Shown piece after piece: positions 98 through 12,191 of a DNA stretch of 12,282 nucleotides. The notes under the pieces were generated by a model. The model made no database searches and was not told the origin of the DNA. It worked only from the letters and a program-made list of their open reading frames with translations. The number at the start of each line of letters is the position of its first letter. Positions within the stretch are counted from its first letter, which is position 1. The DNA lies in contig JAFGOA010000072.1 of assembly GCA_016926735.1 (NCBI GenBank), positions 1 through 12,282 on the forward strand, given 5' to 3'. A program made the translations under genes and the position numbers. The stretch comes from Promethearchaeota archaeon. Lineage in GTDB: Archaea; Asgardarchaeota; Lokiarchaeia; Sigyniarchaeales; SOKP01.

Positions 98-625
98 ATG
101 AATCAATTAGCGCTTAAATTAATCACAATAGGGGATGGAGGAGTTGGAAAGACTACATTACTTCATAGATATGTTGAGGGTAATTTTGTAGATACTACAA
201 CAATGACAATTGGAGTGGAATTTCTTGTTAAAGAAATACAAATAGGCGATACGTTATGTCAATTAAATTTATGGGATATTAGTGGTCAAGAACGTTTTTT
301 TTTTATGGTTGATAAATATATGCGAGGTGCAAGTGGAGCACTATTATTATTTGATATAACTAGCATGAGAAGTTTTGTGAATTTAGGAAAATGGGTAAAA
401 ATTGTAAGAGAACATAATACGTTACAAGAGGACATACCAATTGTTCTAATCGCTGCTAAATGTGATTTAGAGGAATTCTCAATGGTAGGTGATGTACTTG
501 CTAAAAAAGCTCAAGAAAAGATAAATTTAACAGATTATATTAAAACATCCTCAAAATCGGGGCTGAATGTGGATTTATCGATTGAAACATTAGTGAAAAA
601 TATACTTGAAAAACGAGAATCATAA
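98..625 (+). CDS. Rab-like small GTPase (Ras superfamily), 175 aa
   Basis: G1 GDGGVGKT, G2/RabF1-like TIGVEF, G3 WDISGQE, RabF4-like YMRGASG, G4 variant AKCD, G5 TSSK. It has no C-terminal Cys prenylation motif. AAGGGA lies at 81-86 upstream. Confidence 0.95.
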   Translation: MNQLALKLITIGDGGVGKTTLLHRYVEGNFVDTTTMTIGVEFLVKEIQIGDTLCQLNLWDISGQERFFFMVDKYMRGASGALLLFDITSMRSFVNLGKWVKIVREHNTLQEDIPIVLIAAKCDLEEFSMVGDVLAKKAQEKINLTDYIKTSSKSGLNVDLSIETLVKNILEKRES

Positions 626-689: not shown

Positions 690-1655
690 TTAAGAATTTA
701 TCAATACAATAACTTTAGATAAACTGAGAATAATAATTAATATAGTAAAAGCAATAAAACCAACAAGAAAAAATAATGGATTTCCTTTTTCTTTTTCGGG
801 AATAATTTCTCGAATAATTGTATATAAGATTACCCCAGAAATAAATGAAAATAAGATATACATAAGTTCTAAGTTTACATTAAAAAATATAACAACGAGA
901 AAACCAATTCCAATTCCTATAAGCGGTGATGAGCATAATATTAGCTTATTAGAATGAGTTTCTTCATAATCAAAATTAATATCTAAATCTGTAAAGATTG
1001 TATGTTTACCTATAAGTCTATTTGAAATGATGATTCTGAATAATGCAAATATATAAAATAATATAGCATCAACCAACTCAATAAAAATTAAGCTAATCAA
1101 AATTAATCCAACAAGAAAATGGTATAGAAAATTAGTAAAAAATCTTAGTTCTTCTATATTTTTATTAACATGATCATGGATTTTCTTTTTCAATTGGTTT
1201 ATTTGGAATTTTATTGAAGTACCTTGATTATGAAGATCTGTTACTACACTCCCGAGGTCTTTAAGCACCTCAATATCCAATTTTTCGTTCATTATTTCTC
1301 TATTAATTATATTTTCAATATTATCCTCAACAGTATTTAAATTCTTTTCCATATTTATCAACTTTCTAACCTTTTTCTGAGCATTACTCTCAACTCTTTG
1401 AAGAATAAATTTCTCACTTACATGCATAAAAGAGAATCCAATCAATACAAAAAGATATTCTAAAAATTCTAAGCCCAAAGGGTATTCAGGTATTTTTTTC
1501 GAGATTTCTGGTAGTACTACTAAGAAGAAATAAGAAACGGAGATACCTGCAATTAAAGATATTGGTAAAATAGGATGTTTATGATCATAATAATCAGAAA
1601 TAAAAAAAGTAATGCCAAATATTAATACTATAAAAAATAAATAATAATTTTCCAT
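690..1655 (-). CDS. ZIP (Zrt/Irt-like) family-related multi-pass membrane protein with a long coiled-coil loop, 321 aa
   Basis: About 8 hydrophobic segments. ZIP-like TM2 motif AGISVSYFFLVVLPE, TM3 GFSFMHVSEK, and C-terminal FISGVILYTIIREIIPE followed by a final TM. TM4/TM5 metal ligands are degenerate. Confidence 0.7.
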   Translation of the reverse strand: MENYYLFFIVLIFGITFFISDYYDHKHPILPISLIAGISVSYFFLVVLPEISKKIPEYPLGLEFLEYLFVLIGFSFMHVSEKFILQRVESNAQKKVRKLINMEKNLNTVEDNIENIINREIMNEKLDIEVLKDLGSVVTDLHNQGTSIKFQINQLKKKIHDHVNKNIEELRFFTNFLYHFLVGLILISLIFIELVDAILFYIFALFRIIISNRLIGKHTIFTDLDINFDYEETHSNKLILCSSPLIGIGIGFLVVIFFNVNLELMYILFSFISGVILYTIIREIIPEKEKGNPLFFLVGFIAFTILIIILSLSKVIVLINS

Positions 1656-1868: not shown

Positions 1869-2783
1869 ATGACTAGATTTTTTATAATCTCTTCTTCAGA
1901 AGATAAAGCTTCTATTAATATAAGGAATAATTTTATTAATTCTAATATTTTCAATTTTGAAGTAACTAATTATGATTGGGAAGGAAATGCGATTCAACAA
2001 TTAAAATCTATTTCATATTTAGATAATAACAAATCGAAATTTCTGGAGAATAATGAAATCTTTTTAGGATTAACAGATAAACCTTTAGTTTTCCTCAATG
2101 ATATCAATTTTCAAGAAAAAATAATAGATCCCGACATTTTAATAATTGCAAGTAGACATGTTTCCAAAACAGAAAGACCTGCATTTTTAATACACCCAAC
2201 AGGAGTATGGAATGATAATACAGATTTTGGAGGATCTCCAAAACAACTCTCTTATACTAGTGCAATATTGCTAAAAGCTGGTTATCTTTCAATAAAAAAG
2301 ACCGTAAATGATTCAGAAATGTCAACTTATTCTTCAGATTTAGAAGTGTCGCATCATGGACCAACTAACCTTGATAAACCATTAGTTTTTATGGAGCTTG
2401 GAAGTAAATTAAAGGAATGGAATAATATAATTGCAGGTAAAATAATTGCCTTATCAATAATGAGAACTCTGATAAAATATGAGAGGTTAAAACTTGAAAA
2501 TTCCCAAGAAATAGGAGTTGGTTTTGGTGGAACACACTATGCTCCTCAATTTCAGAAATTAATAGAAAAAAAAGATATTTCAGTAGCACATATATGTCCA
2601 AAATATTTTATTTCTTCTTTAAATAAAGATTTAATTGATCAAATGATTGATAAATGCATCGAAAATGTCAATTATTTTATAGTAGATTGGAAAGGTCTAA
2701 ATTCAGAAGATAAAAAGTATCTTCTTCCTATGTTGGAGGAATATGATATTCCTACTAAGAAAATAAAAGATTTTTCTAAATAA
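1869..2783 (+). CDS. dtdA: D-aminoacyl-tRNA deacylase, archaeal/plant DTD2 (GEK1) type, 304 aa
   Basis: Family motifs: S..D.AS.NI at the N-terminus, IIASRH, HPTG, LEVSHHGPT, FMELGS, GFGGTHYAPQF, HICPKY, VDWKG. Confidence 0.93.
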   Translation: MTRFFIISSSEDKASINIRNNFINSNIFNFEVTNYDWEGNAIQQLKSISYLDNNKSKFLENNEIFLGLTDKPLVFLNDINFQEKIIDPDILIIASRHVSKTERPAFLIHPTGVWNDNTDFGGSPKQLSYTSAILLKAGYLSIKKTVNDSEMSTYSSDLEVSHHGPTNLDKPLVFMELGSKLKEWNNIIAGKIIALSIMRTLIKYERLKLENSQEIGVGFGGTHYAPQFQKLIEKKDISVAHICPKYFISSLNKDLIDQMIDKCIENVNYFIVDWKGLNSEDKKYLLPMLEEYDIPTKKIKDFSK

Positions 2784-2795
2784 AATTTATATTTT

Positions 2796-3665
2796 TTAAG
2801 CTGAATCCTCTTTTATTTTCTCATAATATTTTACTAGATTCTTAAAAACAAATTCAGTAGGTCCAAATCCTTGAGTAGCTGATCTTGATAGAACTTTTTG
2901 CAGGAAATCTCTATATTCCATATCCATACCAGGAGTTATATTTAATTCTCTAATGTTATAAAAACTTCGCCAAAAATTTGTTGGCCAAAGAATCATTTGA
3001 TAGAGATCTTTATTATAGATTTTCTCTCCTTCTTCACTTAATTTTATTTCTGTTTTAAGTCTATAGTAGAGACCTCCATCTTGTTCTTCAATAGATATAA
3101 TACCATCTATTTCAATTTCTTTCATTACATTATGTATATTTTCGAGGGTTAATTCATTGTCAAAGATCTTATTCATATTATCAAGAATGCTTTTATCATT
3201 CTGACCTTTCAGTTTTAATAATACATAATTTCGTGCAATTACATTGTATTTTAAAGGAATGGTTTGATGATCTAATTTATTATATTGAATTAGATTACCC
3301 AATACTTCCTTTGCAACCAAATATTTTATTTTTAATTGATCTTCTTCTGAATATTGTTGCTTAAAATCACTACTATTAAAATATAAATTATATAATGTTT
3401 CTGTCAACACTTTAATGGAATAAAATCCATCAATAACTGCTTGAGATACAATTTTTAGAGTATTGATTCTATTATCAATATCTCCTAAAAATTTTTCAGT
3501 ATCAACGGGAATTATTCTTACTAAATGAGGTTTGATATTAACACCACCAAGAAAATCATTCCATTTTTGTTGAAATCTAAAAGTTTGTGATTTTGAAAGA
3601 CTTGATAGTTTTTTAACAATTTCAAGGAGTTTATTTAAGAAATCTTTTTTAGAGAGTTCTGTCAT
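2796..3665 (-). CDS. Hypothetical protein with a probable internal winged helix-turn-helix, 289 aa
   Basis: Long ORF in very AT-rich DNA. Residues ~140-205 show a helix-helix-helix-beta-hairpin pattern (LTLENIHNVMKEIEIDGIISIEEQDGGLYYRL). I do not recognise the family. Confidence 0.75.
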   Translation of the reverse strand: MTELSKKDFLNKLLEIVKKLSSLSKSQTFRFQQKWNDFLGGVNIKPHLVRIIPVDTEKFLGDIDNRINTLKIVSQAVIDGFYSIKVLTETLYNLYFNSSDFKQQYSEEDQLKIKYLVAKEVLGNLIQYNKLDHQTIPLKYNVIARNYVLLKLKGQNDKSILDNMNKIFDNELTLENIHNVMKEIEIDGIISIEEQDGGLYYRLKTEIKLSEEGEKIYNKDLYQMILWPTNFWRSFYNIRELNITPGMDMEYRDFLQKVLSRSATQGFGPTEFVFKNLVKYYEKIKEDSA

Positions 3666-3771: not shown

Positions 3772-4959
3772 TTAAGTGAGATTTTCTAATATCTTGAGAA
3801 CTGTTGCAACTTGATCATCGTTTATAACTAAAGGAGGTAGAATTCTAATGGTAGATAATCCAGAATTCAATAATAACAAAAAGTTATCTTGAGCCTTTTT
3901 AATTAATTCTCTTACTTTCATTCTATAATCGATTCCAATCATTAATCCTTTACCTCGAACTTCTCTTATTAATTTATTATTATTTTCTGCTAATTCTTTA
4001 AGAAAATTAAACATTTTTTTGCCTTGTTTTGCTGAATTTTCAACCAATTTCTCTTGTTCTATAATTTCTATAGTTACATTTGCAGCCGCACATACAAATG
4101 GATTTCCTCCAAATGTAGTAAAATGCTCACCAATTTGTATTTTATTAAATAATTCTTCAGATGAAATAGTAGCACCCATAGGTAGCCCTCCAGCTATTGC
4201 TTTTGCCATACATACTATATCAGGGACAATCTCATAATGCTCATAAGCAAAAAGTTTTCCAGTTCTTCCGAAACCTGTTTGAACTTCATCATCAATCAGA
4301 ATAAGATTTTTTTCATTACATAATTCCTTTAATTCTCTTACAAAATCATAAGGTGCAGGATATACACCACTTTCCCCTTGAACTAGTTCAATGATAACTG
4401 CTATTGTATTTTCATTTATTAAATCTTTAACTGAATCTATATCTCCAAAGGAAGCAAATTTAACATTTGGTGTTAACCAAGAGAGAAATGGTTTTCTATA
4501 TCTTAGATTAAAGGTCATATTTAAAGCTCCTAAAGTTCTCCCATGAAATGCTCTCTTAAATGCAATTATCTCTGGTTTTTTTTTATCTCTATTTACAGCA
4601 AGCGCTAACTTTAGAGCCGCTTCTACAGCTTCTGTTCCACTATTAGAGAGAAAAGTTTGATTTAGGGATTTTGGAGTAATTTCAGATAATTTCTTAAGCA
4701 GATTATATCTAACTTCATTGGGATATCCTGGCGGAATCATAATCAAATCATCCAATTGTTTTTTTAGAATTTCAATATATTTTGGATGAGAATGCCCAAT
4801 ATTTAATACAGCATGCCCTGTTTCACAATCAATATATTCATTTCCTTTATTATCATAGAGGATTGCACCTTTACCTCTCGTTATAATAAAATCTTTTTTT
4901 TGAAATAATTTTGAATGATAATATTGTTCAAAATTAATCATATTCATATTATTTGACAT
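3772..4959 (-). CDS. Class III PLP-dependent aminotransferase, ArgD/LysJ-like (acetylornithine or [LysW]-aminoadipate-semialdehyde transaminase), 395 aa
   Basis: SGTEAVEAALK, FHGRT, ELVQGESG, DEVQTGFGRTG, PLP lysine in MAKAIAGG, TTFGGNP, VRGKGLMIG, IRILPPL. ArgD versus LysJ cannot be resolved by eye. The start could be Met1, Met5 or Met7. Confidence 0.9.
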   Translation of the reverse strand: MSNNMNMINFEQYYHSKLFQKKDFIITRGKGAILYDNKGNEYIDCETGHAVLNIGHSHPKYIEILKKQLDDLIMIPPGYPNEVRYNLLKKLSEITPKSLNQTFLSNSGTEAVEAALKLALAVNRDKKKPEIIAFKRAFHGRTLGALNMTFNLRYRKPFLSWLTPNVKFASFGDIDSVKDLINENTIAVIIELVQGESGVYPAPYDFVRELKELCNEKNLILIDDEVQTGFGRTGKLFAYEHYEIVPDIVCMAKAIAGGLPMGATISSEELFNKIQIGEHFTTFGGNPFVCAAANVTIEIIEQEKLVENSAKQGKKMFNFLKELAENNNKLIREVRGKGLMIGIDYRMKVRELIKKAQDNFLLLLNSGLSTIRILPPLVINDDQVATVLKILENLT

Positions 4960-5286: not shown

Positions 5287-5377
5287 TGATACAAAAATAC
5301 TGTAAAGTTTAAACGATCTTTATTATTAATATTAAATATAAATTAAGCAATTTAATTTCTTAACAAAAAAGAATAAT

Positions 5378-5758
5378 ATGCATATAGATCATTTTGCTGT
5401 TTGTGCTAATTCTGAAGAAGACAGTGATGTTTTTTTTATTCAATTATTAGGTTTGAATAAAATAAGAAATTTTCATGTTTCCTCAAATTTAATGAAAGAA
5501 TTTTTTGGAATAGAAAAAAATCAACAAATTATAAGATATGAGAACGAAGATTTATCTGCAGAGGTATTTATAACGGGAGATAATAGTAGCTCTAATGATT
5601 TATTAACCCATCAATGTTTGGTAGTAAATGAGAGAGATGAATTTCTTAATAGGGCTATTGAATTGGGATATAGGACAACGAAGGTAATGAGAGAAGAAAA
5701 TAATTCATATTACCTTTTTATTAGAGATGATTATGGAAATATATATGAAATTAAATAG
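5378..5758 (+). CDS. VOC (glyoxalase/bleomycin-resistance) family protein, 126 aa
   Basis: Paired beta-alpha-beta-beta-beta pattern: IDHFAV...FFIQLLGL, AEVF, THQCLVV, LFIRDDYGNIYEI. Putative metal ligands are H5, E62, H78 and E124. Confidence 0.88.
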   Translation: MHIDHFAVCANSEEDSDVFFIQLLGLNKIRNFHVSSNLMKEFFGIEKNQQIIRYENEDLSAEVFITGDNSSSNDLLTHQCLVVNERDEFLNRAIELGYRTTKVMREENNSYYLFIRDDYGNIYEIK

Positions 5759-5845
5759 TACTTTTAAAAATAAAACAAATCTTTTATTATACCATATTTT
5801 TATAATAATAATAAAGGCAAACCAGATCCAAAGGGAAGATTAAAC

Positions 5846-6640
5846 ATGTCTTGTATATACAAGTATAAGGTTTTAATTGGAGGATTGCAGAATCTAGGGA
5901 ACATACCTTTTTTAGAGAGTACTGATCTCGAGAAACGAGATTTTTTACATATAGGAATTTCAATTAAACCTATTGAATGTTTAACAAGCCTTGATGAATC
6001 ATATCTATTTATTTTTTGGTCTCTTAGTCGAGCAAAAAAATTTGAATTTATGAATTCTTCTTTTTGCTATGGTGCTCGTGGAGCAATTTTATGTCTTGAT
6101 AAATCTGATAGAAAATCATTAGAGGATGTTTATTATTGGATAGATCTCATCAGATCAACAATAACTCAAATACCAATAATAATAGTAGTTTATCAATCAA
6201 ATCCTGAACAAGATGAAATTTCTGAAGAGGAAACTAATAATATAATAAATAATCATGACTTAAAGCATTATAATTATCTCTCTCATAACAGAAATTTAAA
6301 CCAAATAAAAAAAAATGAATTTTTTAGATTTCTGATACTAAATTTAAGTTTAGATCCATCAGAATATAAAGAAGATTTTACAATAATTTTCCCTACAGAA
6401 GAAAAAAAATTTTTGCAGTTTTCAGATAACTATCTAATATGTCCAATATGTAAAAAGAAAAATCATATTCATAATCTAAAAGAATTTTATTATAGCAAAA
6501 ATCCTGAACTGGTGAAGATAAAAGAAAGATTTTTAGAAATTCAAGAACAAAAAACTGATACTAATAAGTTAATATTAGAAAGAGTTAAATTTGGTATCTT
6601 ATGTTGTAATTGTTATAAAACGTATTATAAAAAAATATAG
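5846..6640 (+). CDS. Degenerate Rab-like GTPase domain (pseudo-GTPase) fused to a C-terminal Cys4 zinc-binding module, 264 aa
   Basis: The scaffold is retained (YKYKVLIGG, IGISI, FIFW, FCYGARGAILCLD, SLEDVYYWIDLIR, IPIIIV) but G1, G3 and G4 are lost. The C-terminus carries CPIC (199-202) and CCNC (253-256). Confidence 0.8.
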   Translation: MSCIYKYKVLIGGLQNLGNIPFLESTDLEKRDFLHIGISIKPIECLTSLDESYLFIFWSLSRAKKFEFMNSSFCYGARGAILCLDKSDRKSLEDVYYWIDLIRSTITQIPIIIVVYQSNPEQDEISEEETNNIINNHDLKHYNYLSHNRNLNQIKKNEFFRFLILNLSLDPSEYKEDFTIIFPTEEKKFLQFSDNYLICPICKKKNHIHNLKEFYYSKNPELVKIKERFLEIQEQKTDTNKLILERVKFGILCCNCYKTYYKKI

Positions 6641-6658
6641 ATTATATTTAGCTAGCTT

Positions 6659-7075
6659 TTAATCAATAAATCCTGCTTCTTGTAAGATTTTTTTATGATC
6701 AAATGCTAGGGCCACTTTGGATAAATCATTTAAATGTATAAGTCTTATTTTTTTAGCATCATCCATTGCTTTAGGTTTTTTTATATAGTTTTTTGGTTCA
6801 CATAAAAAAGTTATAGAAACAGTATGTCCTCTTGGATCACGATTTGGATCAGAAAAAACACCGATCAGTTCAATAATTTTTACATCAATATTAGTTTCTT
6901 CTTTAGCTTCTCTAATACAAGCATTTTCTACAGATTCACCAAGATCTACAAAACCTCCAGGTAAGGCATATTCTCCTTTAAATGGAGGATTACCTCTTTG
7001 AATCAATACAATCTGCTCATCCTTATAAAGAATTATTGCATCAACTGCCAATAAAGGAGTGGTTGGTTTTGTCAT
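6659..7075 (-). CDS. Nudix hydrolase, ADP-ribose pyrophosphatase-like, 138 aa
   Basis: Nudix box GGFVDLGESVENACIREAKEETNI, plus the RDPRGH and LAFDH motifs of the archaeal ADPRase/NrtR-like subfamily. It starts 1 nt after the alaS stop (TAA-T-ATG). Confidence 0.93.
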   Translation of the reverse strand: MTKPTTPLLAVDAIILYKDEQIVLIQRGNPPFKGEYALPGGFVDLGESVENACIREAKEETNIDVKIIELIGVFSDPNRDPRGHTVSITFLCEPKNYIKKPKAMDDAKKIRLIHLNDLSKVALAFDHKKILQEAGFID

Positions 7076-7076
7076 A

Positions 7077-10031
7077 TTAGATAAATATTATTTTATTTAG
7101 ATATGTAATAATAACTTCAGTACTTAAATCTATTTTAGGTATAAAACCTTGTCCAAAATCTTTTATGCCCCCTCCTTTACCTTTATAATTTTCTACACAT
7201 TTTTTTATAACATTTCCTAAGTCTAGATCTATTTTCTCTTTTGGTTCAGGTCCCATCATACCCATAATTAAAATTCCCTTATCAATTTGATTTATCAAAA
7301 TTGAGATTGAATTTGGTTCGATTTTTAAAATATTTTGATTGATATTTTTAAGATCTTCTTTTGAAAGTTTTTCAAAAATACCAATAACAAATTTATATCC
7401 TTTATAATCCGTGGCATTGGATAATAGATTATTTAGATGTTCTTCGTTTAGAATTTTTTCAACTTTCTTTAATTTGTTCTTCGAATTTTCCCATTCATAA
7501 TAAATCTTTTGTATTTTCTCAATTAATCCATTATAATTAACTCCTAAAATTTCAGATAATTTTGTTAAATTATCTCCTTTGAATTTATCAGTGGAGTTTA
7601 GAATTAAATCATTATCATTCACCTTTCCTGATGATAATGATTTTTTTATATTTTTCCATTTAATTAATAACTCGGAGACCCTACCAATTATTTCTTCTTC
7701 ATTTACATTTAATAATGATTTTATCTCACTAATTATCATTATTTTTTTATTTATTATTTGTTCTGAAGCATTTCCAGCAGTAAAAACTATTCGAACTACA
7801 CCATCTTGTATTTTTTGTGATTTAATAATTCGGATCTTTCCTGTTTCTTTTGTGTTATTAAGATGTGTTCCACCACAAGCTTCAACATCTATTCCCGGAA
7901 TTTCAACAATTCTCAATTTCTTTCCTGGAACCGCTCCTCCTTGATAAATTTGCATTCCATATTCCCGTTCTGCATCAGAACGTGGTATAAATTTAAGATT
8001 AAGATCAATTGCTAAATTAACAATTTCGTTTGCTTTTTCTTCAATTTTTTTTAATTGATGATTGCTAAGTTGTTCATAATGTGTAATATCTAAATGGGAA
8101 TTTTTTAGAGTTTTTTTAGCGCCTGCTTGATTTATATGATTCCCTAAAATTTTTCGCGCAGCAGCATTGACTATATGCGTTGCTGTATGATGTTGTGTTA
8201 GTTGTTTTCTCCATGATTTATCAACTTCAATATTGACTATTTCTGATTCCTTGAATTTTGGTTTTTCATTTAATAAATGAATAACATGATTTCCTTGTTT
8301 AAACACATTATCAAATTTTTGATTATTAATCATACCAATATCATGTAATTGTCCACCAGAGGTAGGATAAGCAACAGATTGATCTAATATCACATTATTA
8401 TCAATTATTTTAAGGACTTTTCCTTTATTTTGCGTTTTCGTATAATCAGAATAAAATAAAGGTATGGTTTCTGGAACACCTTCTAAATTCAGTTCTATGG
8501 CTTTTTTTGTAGCATGTTCCTGTTCTTTTCGATCATGTCTTTCTAGAACCAGATTGTAGAAGTTATCCGGTATTTTAATATTAGTATTATATTTTTTTGC
8601 AGTTTCTTTCACCATATCTGGACTTATTCCATTAGAATCATACATTTCAATTAGTAATTCAGTATTTATTTCTCCTTTTCGTAAAATTCGTTCTAATATT
8701 TTATTAGCTTTCTTTTTTGTATTATTATATTTTTTTTTTTCTACTTCAAGAATTTCTCTAATTTCATCAAGATTTTTGGATAACTCTGGAAACATACCTT
8801 TTAGTTCTTCAGCATGCCATTCACAAATATTAGCTATATCAATATTCCAATTAAATCTATCAATAAATCCAATAGCTCTTCTATAAATTACTCTTAAATT
8901 ATATCCTCCACCTACATTTGAAGGAAGTTTACCATCATGAATAGCAAAAAGAAGAGTTCTAGCGTGTTCCGCAATAGAATATAAACCCATCATAGGAAGA
9001 ATTTTACTTTTTAGGGTATTAATTGGGATATTTAGTTCATCTGATACTCGTTGCCAAGCTAAATCCATATCATCAACTTCATCAGCATTAAGATATGCTG
9101 AATATCTAGAGAAATTTTTATATAGATCTAAATCTAAATCAATCTCAGTAATTTTTCTTAATTTAGATAATACTTGAGGAAATGTTGCTTCATACATATT
9201 TGGTGTTCCTTGAGAAAACCAGGCTACTCTTTCTTGACCCAATCCCATATCAAGAACTTTTAATTTTAATTCTTTAGGTCCTTGCTGAGTTTGTTCGAAC
9301 ATGGTATAAACTTGATTAAATAGTTCCACCCCTCGACTAAAAAATTCTAAACTACATCCAAAGGATCCTCCTCCTGCCCAGGAGTCCTCATGAATTGTAA
9401 TTTCCTCTTTAGATAATCCAACTCCCTCACTAATAAAGTCATGCATATCAATAAAAAGTTCTCCTTGATTCCACTCATTAGGAGTCATAAAAGCATGTTG
9501 TCCAATCATTATAAAGCCACAAGCATGAGACCCTGTTAATCCTACATTTTCAATATCATTAAATCTCAGACAAAATTGAGGAATTATTAGTTTTTTTGCA
9601 GGAGGTTCCATTTCACCTGCAATTACATATGGTTGAAACGCTGATATTGAAGCTATTGTAAACTCAGAAGTAGGATTCCATCTAGCTACACTTGGATATC
9701 TCTTAATTGGTACATATCCTCTAGGTTCTAATATTTCAACAATTTTTTTCCATACATCTGTATATGATAATGTTATTTTTGAGGGATTATCAACAACAAC
9801 TTGAAATCCTCCAGAACACATTGGATCTCCACATACTTTGCGATTAATATGAGTTGTCCAAAAAAAAGTACCACAAGAAACACATTCCTTTCGCATATAT
9901 CCTAATTCATTTAGCTCTTTTGTAGGAAAATATTTTTCTGGTTCAATTGAAGCGATTTTTTTAAAAACTTTTTTAAGTTCCTTGTCTGTCTTACAATTTT
10001 TAAGTAGAATTATATTTTGATCAGAAAGCAT
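7077..10031 (-). CDS. alaS: Alanine--tRNA ligase, archaeal type, 984 aa
   Basis: N-terminal CVSCG...CGDPMC cluster, ARW, IASISAFQP, motif 2 region CLRFNDIENVG, motif 3 DMGLGQER, PSNVGGGYNLR, editing motifs HHTATH and EACGGTH, and C-Ala GKGGG...GQG. Confidence 0.98.
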   Translation of the reverse strand: MLSDQNIILLKNCKTDKELKKVFKKIASIEPEKYFPTKELNELGYMRKECVSCGTFFWTTHINRKVCGDPMCSGGFQVVVDNPSKITLSYTDVWKKIVEILEPRGYVPIKRYPSVARWNPTSEFTIASISAFQPYVIAGEMEPPAKKLIIPQFCLRFNDIENVGLTGSHACGFIMIGQHAFMTPNEWNQGELFIDMHDFISEGVGLSKEEITIHEDSWAGGGSFGCSLEFFSRGVELFNQVYTMFEQTQQGPKELKLKVLDMGLGQERVAWFSQGTPNMYEATFPQVLSKLRKITEIDLDLDLYKNFSRYSAYLNADEVDDMDLAWQRVSDELNIPINTLKSKILPMMGLYSIAEHARTLLFAIHDGKLPSNVGGGYNLRVIYRRAIGFIDRFNWNIDIANICEWHAEELKGMFPELSKNLDEIREILEVEKKKYNNTKKKANKILERILRKGEINTELLIEMYDSNGISPDMVKETAKKYNTNIKIPDNFYNLVLERHDRKEQEHATKKAIELNLEGVPETIPLFYSDYTKTQNKGKVLKIIDNNVILDQSVAYPTSGGQLHDIGMINNQKFDNVFKQGNHVIHLLNEKPKFKESEIVNIEVDKSWRKQLTQHHTATHIVNAAARKILGNHINQAGAKKTLKNSHLDITHYEQLSNHQLKKIEEKANEIVNLAIDLNLKFIPRSDAEREYGMQIYQGGAVPGKKLRIVEIPGIDVEACGGTHLNNTKETGKIRIIKSQKIQDGVVRIVFTAGNASEQIINKKIMIISEIKSLLNVNEEEIIGRVSELLIKWKNIKKSLSSGKVNDNDLILNSTDKFKGDNLTKLSEILGVNYNGLIEKIQKIYYEWENSKNKLKKVEKILNEEHLNNLLSNATDYKGYKFVIGIFEKLSKEDLKNINQNILKIEPNSISILINQIDKGILIMGMMGPEPKEKIDLDLGNVIKKCVENYKGKGGGIKDFGQGFIPKIDLSTEVIITYLNKIIFI
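7455..7733 (-). repeat. Tandem duplication (55-aa period) of the helical linker module in the AlaRS C-terminal region
   Basis: ISEIKSLLNVNEEEIIGRVSELLIKWKNIKKSL (from residue 767) aligns without gaps to LTKLSEILGVNYNGLIEKIQKIYYEWENSKNKL (from residue 822). There are 8/33 identities including the Trp, and the hydrophobic pattern is conserved. Confidence 0.65.
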
Positions 10032-10267: not shown

Positions 10268-11338
10268 GTGATACGAAATTTGTCAGAAACATTATTAAGA
10301 TTAAAAGATCTAAAGAAAGATTTTGGAAATTTCACAGCTGTCGATAAAATAAATTTAGATATATATGGTGGTGAAGTAATTGGATTTGTTGGTCCTAATG
10401 GCGCTGGAAAAACAACGGTCATAAAAATGATTGCTAGATTAATAAAACCCACGTCAGGTAAGATTTTTGTTCAAAATACTAAAGGTGAATTAGTAGATTT
10501 AAATTCTAAATTAAATATATTTAACTATTTTGGATTTTTAATTGACCAGCCTTTTTTTTACAAGGATACAACTCCCAAAGAAATATTAAAATATTTAGCA
10601 AAAGTACAACATTATCCTAAAAAGGATATTAATGAAAGAATTGATGAGTTATTGAAAAAATTCAATCTTTTTCGTTGGAAAGATAAAAAAATAAAAACAT
10701 TTTCAAAAGGAATGAAACAAAAATTAGGAATTGCTCAAACTCTTTTAATGGATCCAAAAATTATTATTTTAGATGAACCTCAATCAGGTTTAGATCCAAA
10801 AGCAAGGATAGAAATAAGAAAATTACTCAAAGAACTTCAACTTAATGGTAAAACTATTTTTGTAGCTTCTCATTTACTTCATGAGATATCCGAAATATGT
10901 GATAAAATAGCATTAGTAAACAAGGGAAAAATTATAGCTTTTAATACAATTGAAAATTTGAAAAGGAATCTAAAAACAAATATAATAGAATGCCAACTCC
11001 TTGAACCTATTAAAGACAAAAACGTTATTGATATGATGATAGATTTACTTTGTCCTTATTTAGATATGAATGTTACAACTGAATTAGGAATTAAACCAAT
11101 AGTCTTTAATTCAAATAATTATGATCTAGGAATTTATTTCGATGGAACCAAGGAATCAATGAGTGAAATATTAGATATTATAACTACTAAATTTAGATCC
11201 GAGATGAAATTAGTTTCATTTGCTCAACAACGTACGTCTCAACTTGAAAGAATATACACAGAACTATTAAATGAATATGATGATAATTCTTCATCAATAA
11301 TAACAAGTGAAGGTGATAATATTGCAATTGCTCGATAA
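10268..11338 (+). CDS. ABC transporter ATP-binding protein (ABC-2/multidrug exporter type); true start probably TTG at 10280
   Basis: Walker A GPNGAGKT, signature FSKGMKQK, Walker B IIILDEP, D-loop SGLDP, H-switch ASHL, and a C-terminal accessory domain ending LERIYTEL. The called GTG lies inside an AGGTGAT RBS (10266-10272), 7 nt before an in-frame TTG. Confidence 0.95.
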   Translation: MIRNLSETLLRLKDLKKDFGNFTAVDKINLDIYGGEVIGFVGPNGAGKTTVIKMIARLIKPTSGKIFVQNTKGELVDLNSKLNIFNYFGFLIDQPFFYKDTTPKEILKYLAKVQHYPKKDINERIDELLKKFNLFRWKDKKIKTFSKGMKQKLGIAQTLLMDPKIIILDEPQSGLDPKARIEIRKLLKELQLNGKTIFVASHLLHEISEICDKIALVNKGKIIAFNTIENLKRNLKTNIIECQLLEPIKDKNVIDMMIDLLCPYLDMNVTTELGIKPIVFNSNNYDLGIYFDGTKESMSEILDIITTKFRSEMKLVSFAQQRTSQLERIYTELLNEYDDNSSSIITSEGDNIAIAR

Positions 11339-12191
11339 GAAAGAGTTATATATGATATTAGAGGAAAAAAATAAGATCTATTTATCATTAAAAGAAATTT
11401 ATACAACAATCATTTTTGAGTTAAAAAGACAATATAAAATATTTTTAGGATTCACTATAACATCTATACTATTTGCATTTTTATTAAGTATTGTTCCATA
11501 TACTTTAATACCGGATTATCCTTTACCAGAAACACAAGCTGATTATTTTAGGGAGGGACTTCAATTTTTTACAATAATAGTTACAGTTGCGGCATGTCTC
11601 TTTTTTGGTAATCTTATTTGTTCGGAATATAGTAATAAAACAGGATATATTCTTTTTCCTATAATAAAAAAACAAAAATTATTCATTGGGAAATTTATCG
11701 CATGTCTAATATATATTTACTTGATAATTGGCGTTTTTTATTTAATTCTTGGTTTAGCAGGATTAACTTTCTATGGTGAATTAATAGATCTTTATTATAT
11801 CAGTTTAGGAATTGCATTGTTTTGGACTATATCGATGTGTTGTTTTATAACATTTTTGAGTTCATTTATGAAAAACACAACTCTAACTATTATAACGTCA
11901 ATTACATTCTTATTAATAGGAGATCGGATTATTGGTTTGCTTCTTAGTCTTATTGCACCTGAATTTGAACCGTTTTATTCTTTAAATTATGCTTCAAATA
12001 TTTTAATATATATCTTTGAAGATGATTTTCTTCTTGGAACGATGATTAGATATCATGAACAATTTAGGATGGGTTATGAAACAATCACTTGGATAACTCC
12101 AACAATAGAGGCAGGATTAATAATAATAATCTCTTATATAGGATTAAGTTTGATTTTAGCCTTCTTCTTTATAAAAAGGAGACAACTATAA
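11307..12191 (+). CDS. ABC-2 type transporter permease; true start probably TTG at 11322 or 11328, or ATG at 11352
   Basis: About 6 TM segments, the ABC-2 motif ICSEYSNKTGYILFPIIKKQKLFIGKF, and a C-terminal FIKRRQL. It overlaps the ATPase gene end. AGGTGAT lies at 11311-11317. Confidence 0.92.
   Translation: MKVIILQLLDKKELYMILEEKNKIYLSLKEIYTTIIFELKRQYKIFLGFTITSILFAFLLSIVPYTLIPDYPLPETQADYFREGLQFFTIIVTVAACLFFGNLICSEYSNKTGYILFPIIKKQKLFIGKFIACLIYIYLIIGVFYLILGLAGLTFYGELIDLYYISLGIALFWTISMCCFITFLSSFMKNTTLTIITSITFLLIGDRIIGLLLSLIAPEFEPFYSLNYASNILIYIFEDDFLLGTMIRYHEQFRMGYETITWITPTIEAGLIIIISYIGLSLILAFFFIKRRQL

Follow-up and report, generated by a model that had tools for sequence, protein, structure and literature searches.

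The window, a 12,282-nt stretch of a Lokiarchaeial genome (contig JAFGOA010000072.1), contains an intact open reading frame (ORF) lying between a glyoxalase-fold gene of the VOC type and a convergent NUDIX hydrolase gene. We call this ORF GZ, a label for the fusion of a G domain with a Cys5His module. GZ encodes 264 aa plus a stop codon, and its ATG start aligns with the starts of its homologues. The product combines a Rab-like domain that lacks the nucleotide-binding motifs, an acidic linker, and a module with five invariant cysteines and one invariant histidine. A word-indexed search recovered only three close relatives (95, 72, and 58% identity), one of which is annotated by NCBI as a hypothetical protein of Candidatus Lokiarchaeota archaeon. 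An exhaustive search of a representative library yielded 393 proteins at E ≤ 0.001, of which 75 reached E ≤ 1e-10. Given these homologues and matches, and because stop codons are frequent at the ~25% G+C of the window, GZ did not arise as an ORF by chance. When 161 genomes of the class were searched in six frames, full-length matches at 23–57% identity appeared in many genera of the window's family (f1), with the weak end of the E-values mixing family members and generic GTPases.

None of the five nucleotide-binding motifs could be recognized in GZ. In place of the G1 consensus GxxxxGK[ST], the protein reads GGLQNLGNI, and at the G2 position His35 replaces the Thr found in the T-I-G stretch of the canonical GTPase encoded in the window. 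The G3 motif DxxG(Q), expected as WDxxGQ, is WSLSRA; the G4 motif [NT]KxD is YQSN; and YLSHN is found where a G5 loop of the SA[KL] type would be expected. The residues that the original prediction quoted are each at their place, and its claim that every motif is gone holds for all five. Judged by its sequence, GZ should be unable to bind guanine nucleotide. The relationship to small GTPases remains recognizable from b3 onward. Pfam Ras matched aa 64–144 with 27.0 bits (cut-off 21.6), and Pfam Roc gave 25.7 bits, just below its cut-off of 27. The proposed alignment to the intact GTPase encoded elsewhere in the window is real, with 28% identity over 69 aa by BLASTP (E 2e-9). That GTPase is itself one of 31 Ras-like matches at E ≤ 10 in the 3.88-Mb source genome.

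An AlphaFold2 (AF2) model of GZ, built from an alignment of 39 sequences (A2), reached a mean predicted local distance difference test score (pLDDT) of 85.9 and a predicted template modeling score of 0.80. Strands (E) and helices (H) of the G-like domain follow the order E-H-E-E-H-E-H-E-H-E-H. Confidence was lowest in the region of helix 1, switch I, and the former P-loop; in blocks of 10 residues, residues 11–40 scored 78, 62, and 73. Foldseek returned 1535 PDB matches at E ≤ 0.001, the best being Rab11a (6ixv_E, E 4e-10, TM-target 0.75), with Rab27a (3bc1_E), Rab8a (6whe_A), and Ran among the further top matches (E 4e-10 to 5e-9). The Pfam Ras match, the predicted order of strands and helices, and the Rab, Ran, and Ras structures found by Foldseek all place the domain in the six-stranded alpha/beta fold of the Ras superfamily. 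This bears out the view that the N-terminal part is a Ras/Rab scaffold; the refuting case, in which modeling would yield some other fold, does not apply.

Table 1. Features of GZ and genes of the window, with the evidence or remark for each
Feature	Position	Strand	Evidence or remark
GZ gene: Rab-like pseudo-GTPase domain, linker, and Cys5His module	5846..6640	+	ORF list, homologues, AF2
Ras/Rab-fold domain without nucleotide-binding motifs, aa 1-168	5846..6349	+	Pfam Ras, Foldseek
Degenerate G1/P-loop position GGLQNLGNI, aa 12-20	5879..5905	+	same-position orthologues GGxxxSGK[TS]
His35 at aligned switch-I Thr position	5948..5950	+	alignment
Degenerate G3 WSLSRA, aa 58-63; Asp, Gly, Gln gone; Trp58 invariant in family	6017..6034	+	
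Degenerate G4 YQSN, aa 116-119, replacing [NT]KxD	6191..6202	+	orthologues GTKxD
Acidic linker, aa 169-186; 1 K/R, 6 D/E	6350..6403	+	composition, AF2 model
Cys5His helical module, aa 187-264	6404..6637	+	invariant residues, separate AF2 model, hmmsearch
First ligand cluster CPICKKKNH, aa 199-207 (C199, C202, N206, H207)	6440..6466	+	
Second ligand cluster CCNC (C253, C254, C256), start of last helix	6602..6613	+	
VOC (glyoxalase-fold) gene, co-directional upstream neighbor	5378..5758	+	conserved synteny; not shown as partner
NUDIX hydrolase gene, convergent downstream neighbor	6659..7075	-	Pfam NUDIX 84.9 bits
Canonical Rab-like small GTPase, all motifs present	98..625	+	Pfam Ras 151 bits
Hydrophobic 321-aa ORF with coiled-coil-like insert	690..1655	-	no Pfam match at E ≤ 0.1
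D-aminoacyl-tRNA deacylase domain protein	1869..2783	+	Pfam 188.7 bits
289-aa ORF	2796..3665	-	no Pfam match at E ≤ 0.1
Class-III aminotransferase	3772..4959	-	Pfam 376.7 bits
984-aa ORF resembling alanyl-tRNA synthetase	7077..10031	-	by eye
ABC ATPase overlapping a 294-aa membrane ORF	10268..12191	+	

Among 20 loci compared, the order VOC, GZ, convergent NUDIX was found wherever there was enough flanking sequence. Because they share this place, we regard the GZ genes of these loci as positional orthologues. GK[ST] is present in 14 of their 23 GZ ORFs, accompanied in 12 by both WD and TKxD. Nine have none of the three motifs: the window's own, those of three congeners, those of four loci of genus g13, and one of genus g7. 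Loci L016, L019, and L020 hold tandem duplicates between VOC and NUDIX, and both copies have G1, WD, and TKxD.

A maximum-likelihood tree of 53 rows (IQ-TREE quick search, LG+G4, motif columns removed, without bootstraps) placed the window's GZ in a clade of nine rows with 99% support. All nine, which come from two genera, are motif-less, and G1 GK[ST] is absent from every one. The clade is nested in a subfamily of 33 rows (100% support), of which 17 have all three motifs, 4 are partial, and 12 have none. Complete motif loss takes four changes on this tree, at least three of them forced by well-supported branches. We infer that these changes are losses because the motifs match the universal GTPase consensus. 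The motifs would then have been lost in the window's genus and a neighboring genus, with at least three losses in the family.

The loss reaches further than these three motifs. Thr occupies the switch-I Thr column in 1 of the 33 subfamily rows. Ten rows have a gap there, some of them reading [TS]P-IG, and those may have a displaced Thr. Likewise, the Gly of DxxG and the catalytic Gln each occur in 1 of 33. To judge from these columns, the subfamily as a whole seems to bind nucleotide but to lack the canonical sensors of the gamma-phosphate, and the window's clade appears to have gone further, to the loss of nucleotide binding altogether. Whether homologues keep G1–G5 intact, as the original prediction had asked, thus has a divided answer: the GK[ST] signature stands in most locus ORFs, but the switch-I Thr, DxxG Gly, and Gln are mostly gone across the subfamily. 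A second, non-syntenic branch of fusions (for example, A2 rows P0015, P0019, P0023, P0029, P0037, P0058, and P0067) is a mosaic of the opposite kind, with the switch-I Thr retained and, in P0029, a full WDIGGQQ, but with GK[ST] lost and NKxD mostly lost.

Both the G domain and the module of GZ are under purifying selection. We estimated the ratio of nonsynonymous to synonymous divergence (dN/dS, omega) by the Nei-Gojobori method (NG86). Between GZ and its 95%-identical orthologue (L009), the one unsaturated pair of the window's clade (dS 0.17), omega was 0.127 overall, 0.124 for aa 1–168, and 0.117 for the rest. Comparison with the 72% and 58% orthologues gave 0.12 and 0.20, with dS saturated at ~1.5. 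Pairs of motif-bearing orthologues ranged from 0.06 to 0.17, and the single unsaturated pair among them (dS 0.18) had a value of 0.108. Because these values are similar, the motif-less G domain is apparently constrained like its motif-bearing counterparts. The frame is intact in all four genomes of the window's genus and in the neighboring genus, and YQSN is invariant in the four closest sequences. That GZ is a maintained gene is therefore borne out: omega is ~0.12 in both halves, the motif-less state is itself conserved, and the gene does not evolve neutrally.

Constraint is not spread evenly over the domain. We compared regional conservation, measured as mean pairwise BLOSUM62, between 9 motif-less and 17 motif-bearing rows. 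The motif-less rows are relaxed at the P-loop (1.66 vs. 3.58), G4 (1.77 vs. 3.11), and G5 (−0.02 vs. 2.62). No such relaxation is seen in b2 (3.51 vs. 3.66), in b3 (4.88 vs. 3.80), across helix 1 and switch I (3.00 vs. 2.07), or in the module (2.89 vs. 2.79). The suggestion that the effector-facing, or interswitch, surface has been kept agrees with the values for b2, b3, and helix-1/switch-I.

The ligand-type residues expected in the C-terminal part are present, C199, C202, and H207 in the first cluster and the three cysteines of CCNC at 253–256. Ten columns are invariant in an alignment of 39 fusion proteins, namely G37, W58, C199, P200, C202, H207, G250, C253, C254, and C256, and N206, L211, F192, and I251 are near-invariant. 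The signature of the module is CPxC-x3-NH ... GIxCCxC, with GI[LP]CCxC preceding the terminal helix. A separate AF2 model of aa 170–264 (pLDDT 82.3) arranges the module as a helix, a short hairpin bearing CPIC, three helices, a loop, and a final helix from CCNC. Treble clefs and zinc ribbons hold one Zn between a CxxC knuckle on a beta-hairpin and a ligand pair at a helix N-terminus. The predicted secondary structure would be compatible with such folds, with bridge residues around CPIC and a helix that starts at 254. Cys4 zinc sites usually have two CxxC-spaced pairs, one on a hairpin and the other where a helix begins. C199/C202 and C253/C256 are two such pairs and form the simplest predicted Cys4 site. 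Beyond this set, H207 and C254 are likewise invariant and of ligand type.

Searches with the module returned little. At E ≤ 0.05, each Pfam family that was matched at all was matched by only 1 of 22 module proteins, NCBIfam contained no family for either P0001 or one stand-alone module protein, Foldseek found no fold match (best E 0.71), and the ESM Atlas held no usable match. In a PDB profile search, the best matches were the Rad50 zinc hook (1l8d, E 0.077) and TFE (0.083), which are very weak hints. In the Rad50 hook, CPxC lies at the apex of an antiparallel coiled coil and the Zn is shared by two chains. In its predicted structure, the module resembles this hook, the treble clef, and the zinc ribbon in its CPxC knuckle on a short helix-flanked hairpin and in the second Cys pair at a helix N-terminus. 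However, the Rad50 profile match and the match of Pfam Rad50_zn_hook to only 1 of 22 members (E 0.038) are both below significance, and the module has a second Cys cluster of its own, so it does not qualify as a Rad50 hook. We also considered nucleic-acid binding by charge and rejected it, as the net charge of the module runs from −8 to +14 (mean +3.2, n = 105) with no consistent basicity. A RanBP2-type finger, whose consensus the C-x2-C-x3-N spacing resembles, was likewise set aside, as no Pfam match supports it.

The module was found in 127 of 400 genomes of the Asgard phylum: 123 of 134 in f1, 1 of 14 in f3, 2 of 4 in f4, and 0 in other families. By its sequence, it would be an undescribed domain almost confined to one Lokiarchaeial family. 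A regular expression located it in 105 of the 154 proteins of our working set. Where it follows a Ras-like domain, the proteins are ~250–290 aa long, or 300–480 aa with a longer linker, and 8 of 10 long module-bearing proteins that we scanned match Pfam Ras. The module lies N-terminal to the G domain in P0078 and is followed by a tail of at least 40 aa in P0087 and P0074. Stand-alone module proteins have ~120–200 aa, with the module preceded by a conserved helix of the SLR[DE]EMLxELxRL type. They are near-universal in f1, including the genus g11 (47 of 54 genomes). The fusion, for which a search across Asgard proteomes had been proposed, occurs in many genera of f1 and is absent from g11. Apart from its stand-alone form, the module is nearly restricted to fusions with Ras-like domains, which it may precede or follow; it is therefore probably a small-GTPase-associated interaction domain.

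Among the 13,036 ORFs of the source genome, hmmsearch detected exactly two modules, that of GZ (E 6e-30) and that of a 164-codon ORF on another contig (C228:29163-29654, minus strand, outside the window). The latter is a stand-alone module (E 1.6e-21) that follows a conserved SLREEMLTELDYLK-type helix. We looked at the surroundings of this gene and of 20 further stand-alone loci (L028–L047). An HdrA-MvhD-like iron-sulfur (Fe-S) flavoprotein gene lies upstream in 19 of the 21, DUF711 is present in 13, and a gelsolin-domain protein is nearby in 12; a DeoC aldolase and a HEAT protein also occur. This mix of metabolic and cytoskeletal neighbors gave no clear direction, and we discarded it as a pointer to function. 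The helix motif, in the form [SN]LR[DEQ]EM[LI]xELxRL[RK], appears two to three times in some module proteins (P0117, P0123, P0136, and P0151). P0136 has it C-terminal to the module, whereas in the long fusion P0151 it lies between the two domains, and it may be a separate short binding motif.

The two genes that flank GZ are conserved as well. VOC lies upstream in 19 of the 20 loci, the 20th starting at a contig end, and NUDIX lies immediately 3′ in 16 of 20. The VOC protein scores below the Pfam Glyoxalase cut-off (17.9 vs. 20.6 bits), and H5, E62, H78, and E124 are invariant in 19 sequences. Because these residues are the usual VOC metal ligand set, the protein is probably an active metalloenzyme. 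The gap between VOC and GZ is 88 bp in the window, and intergenic gaps across loci are ~90–170 bp. In g11, VOC and NUDIX are directly adjacent and convergent in three of five genomes (L048, L049, and L052). From this adjacency, GZ would represent an insertion or a deletion within an older VOC/NUDIX backbone. NUDIX is also missing at that place in the other two g11 loci (L050 and L051). A complex prediction for the VOC protein with GZ (score 0.00, mark 0.32) counts neither way, and nor does expression: no RNA data set was listed for 5300–6700, and two metatranscriptome runs from the same study as the likely source of the window contained next to none of the sequence words of that source.

We hold with moderate confidence that GZ is a Lokiarchaeial Rab-like G domain joined to a metal module, and that it serves as a nucleotide-free pseudo-GTPase adaptor under purifying selection. 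The interpretation offered by the original prediction is thus partly supported. The module would bind a structural metal, most simply Zn through C199/C202/C253/C256, which would leave H207 and C254 for a second role. GZ would act constitutively and independently of nucleotide, binding through the conserved interswitch face (b2/b3 and the stretch equivalent to switch I) together with the metal module. A permanent intramolecular pairing of the G domain with the module would make nucleotide binding dispensable and would account for its repeated loss. We offer a wider scenario only tentatively, as one that is more doubtful than the adaptor role itself. The module may be a lineage-specific GTPase-binding effector or regulator, whose stand-alone form works in trans and whose fusion to a Rab-like G domain made a lasting intramolecular GTPase–effector pair and set off a stepwise series from switch to pseudo-GTPase. 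The gamma-phosphate sensors (switch-I Thr, DxxG Gly, and Gln) would have become dispensable first, in nearly the whole subfamily, and nucleotide binding next, with at least three losses. Such a series would lead from a switch to a nucleotide-bound scaffold to a nucleotide-free pseudo-GTPase, in archaeal relatives of eukaryotes.

Several points weigh against the adaptor reading. The rows behind the tree and the motif counts were hand-chosen: they comprise the 23 locus ORFs and 30 of the 150 listed representatives, the latter ~250–290 aa long with both domains, with fragments and longer forms excluded. Just two dN/dS pairs are unsaturated (dS 0.17 and 0.18, the others having dS from 0.6 to >5), and the NG86 values carry no correction for the strong A+T bias. 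The VOC/NUDIX synteny was tried as functional evidence and ruled out, since the two genes adjoin without GZ in three of five g11 genomes. In addition, six invariant ligand-type residues exceed the needs of one Zn site, and the data fit a binuclear or Fe-S site just as well as they fit one Zn. This last point leads to an alternative that overlaps the adaptor reading, namely that the module holds a redox- or metal-sensing cofactor ([2Fe-2S], [4Fe-4S], or binuclear) and that GZ is a sensor. The five Cys and one His, invariant in 39 sequences, leave two ligands beyond the need of one Zn, and in 19 of 21 loci the stand-alone paralogue directly follows a gene for an Fe-S flavoprotein of the HdrA-MvhD type. 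Still, that neighborhood concerns the paralogue and not GZ, no Fe-S family was matched in Pfam, and the placement of C199/C202 and C253/C256 on a hairpin and a helix start is the usual Cys4 zinc pattern. We consider a sensor unlikely. It is more improbable that GZ works with its conserved neighbors, as a subunit that regulates or scaffolds either the VOC enzyme or the NUDIX hydrolase. The gene order is kept across genera while the outer flanks change, and VOC and GZ are co-directional and 88 bp apart, yet the VOC–NUDIX linkage is independent of GZ, the convergent NUDIX cannot be co-transcribed with it, and gaps of ~90–170 bp allow separate promoters.

The remaining alternatives concern the G domain itself and the terminal cysteines. 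Pseudoenzymes with migrated catalytic residues are known (PMC10211241), and the motif-less clade has conserved G12, G13, and the IPF residues with which the P-loop is left; the domain might accordingly use migrated or non-canonical residues to bind nucleotide, or some other ligand with a phosphate, and be an atypical enzyme or switch. However, the G1 Lys and Ser/Thr, the G3 Asp, NKxD, and G5 are gone together, and it is at these former motif positions that the domain is least conserved among the motif-less rows and AF2 confidence is lowest, so we give residual binding little credence. A Rab-like fold with cysteines 8–11 residues from the C-terminus also brings to mind a lipidation or membrane-anchor signal like the CC/CXC prenylation of eukaryotic Rabs. 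Such a signal would be notable, given that no C-terminal cysteines were found in the GTPases of MKD1 (PMC10933270). We think it very improbable, because the three Cys co-vary invariantly with CPxC-NH ~50 residues upstream and sit where a helix, predicted with confidence, begins, and because relatives have long tails after the module (P0087 and P0074) or carry it N-terminally (P0078). That GZ is an incipient pseudogene whose frame is still open would fit the loss of all catalytic motifs, but it is scarcely credible in view of omega values of 0.12–0.20, a 264-codon frame open at ~25% G+C and intact throughout the genus and in its neighbor, and an invariant YQSN in the four closest sequences.

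Among known systems, Rab and Ran proteins (Rab11a, Rab27a, Rab8a, and Ran) are the closest in structure. GZ has the same alpha/beta G-domain fold (TM-target up to 0.77), and its sequence is recognizably Ras/Roc-like from b3 to b5. It differs from them in an identity of only 11–19%, in the absence of all of G1–G5, in having no terminal prenylation motif, and in its extra Cys5His domain of ~80 aa. By the strict definition, a Rab has a CC/CXC prenylation motif at its extreme C-terminus and RabF motifs. The CCNC of GZ is 8 residues from the end and within a folded module, so GZ does not qualify as a Rab in this respect.

GTPases with zinc modules are known, for example, RsgA/YjeQ with its C-terminal zinc finger and archaeal eIF2-gamma with its zinc ribbon, as are zinc-containing Rab effectors of the rabphilin/Slp type. 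Like GZ with its predicted site, all bring together cysteine-rich metal binding and either a G domain or a part that binds one. However, these are other GTPase classes with other zinc folds, and no match to them was seen here. Nearer in lineage are the multidomain GTPases of Asgard archaea. In PMC10933270, MKD1 is credited with 74 small GTPases, including G+roadblock, G+longin, and “G+?” architectures, and lineage-restricted domain shuffling in Asgard is described in 10.1101/2020.10.19.343400. GZ belongs to the same Ras-superfamily expansion, and lineage-restricted fusions are typical of Asgard. It differs in that its partner is a cysteine module, not a roadblock or longin domain, and in that its G domain is, by its motifs, predicted to be catalytically dead. 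In the full-text literature, we found no description of the GZ architecture, of the module, or of an archaeal pseudoGTPase clade, though the supplements of these two papers may list “G+?” proteins or asCOGs. To that extent, the claim that the architecture is undescribed stands.

PseudoGTPases have so far been treated as a eukaryotic theme, and the papers that we found to name them together with archaea are general pseudoenzyme reviews. Class i pseudoGTPases are nucleotide-free, with a G-domain fold whose nucleotide-binding motifs are lost, and eukaryotic examples are CENP-M, the pG1 and pG2 domains of p190RhoGAP, and the dynein light intermediate chain. GZ has the fold and the lost motifs of this class. 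None of the three examples is among the listed Foldseek PDB matches of GZ. The likeness lies in a G fold that is retained as a scaffold under selection. By contrast, GZ is archaeal, Rab-like, and fused to a predicted metal module, and its same-position orthologues in sister genera still carry G1, the G3 Asp, and G4. Because they do, the transition is visible within one gene family. Paired with these motif-bearing orthologues, GZ provides matched, natural comparisons for studying the role of a G domain after the loss of nucleotide binding. The family also offers a datable order of losses, sensors first and binding later, and the module provides a handle on the partners of the large Asgard GTPase expansion.

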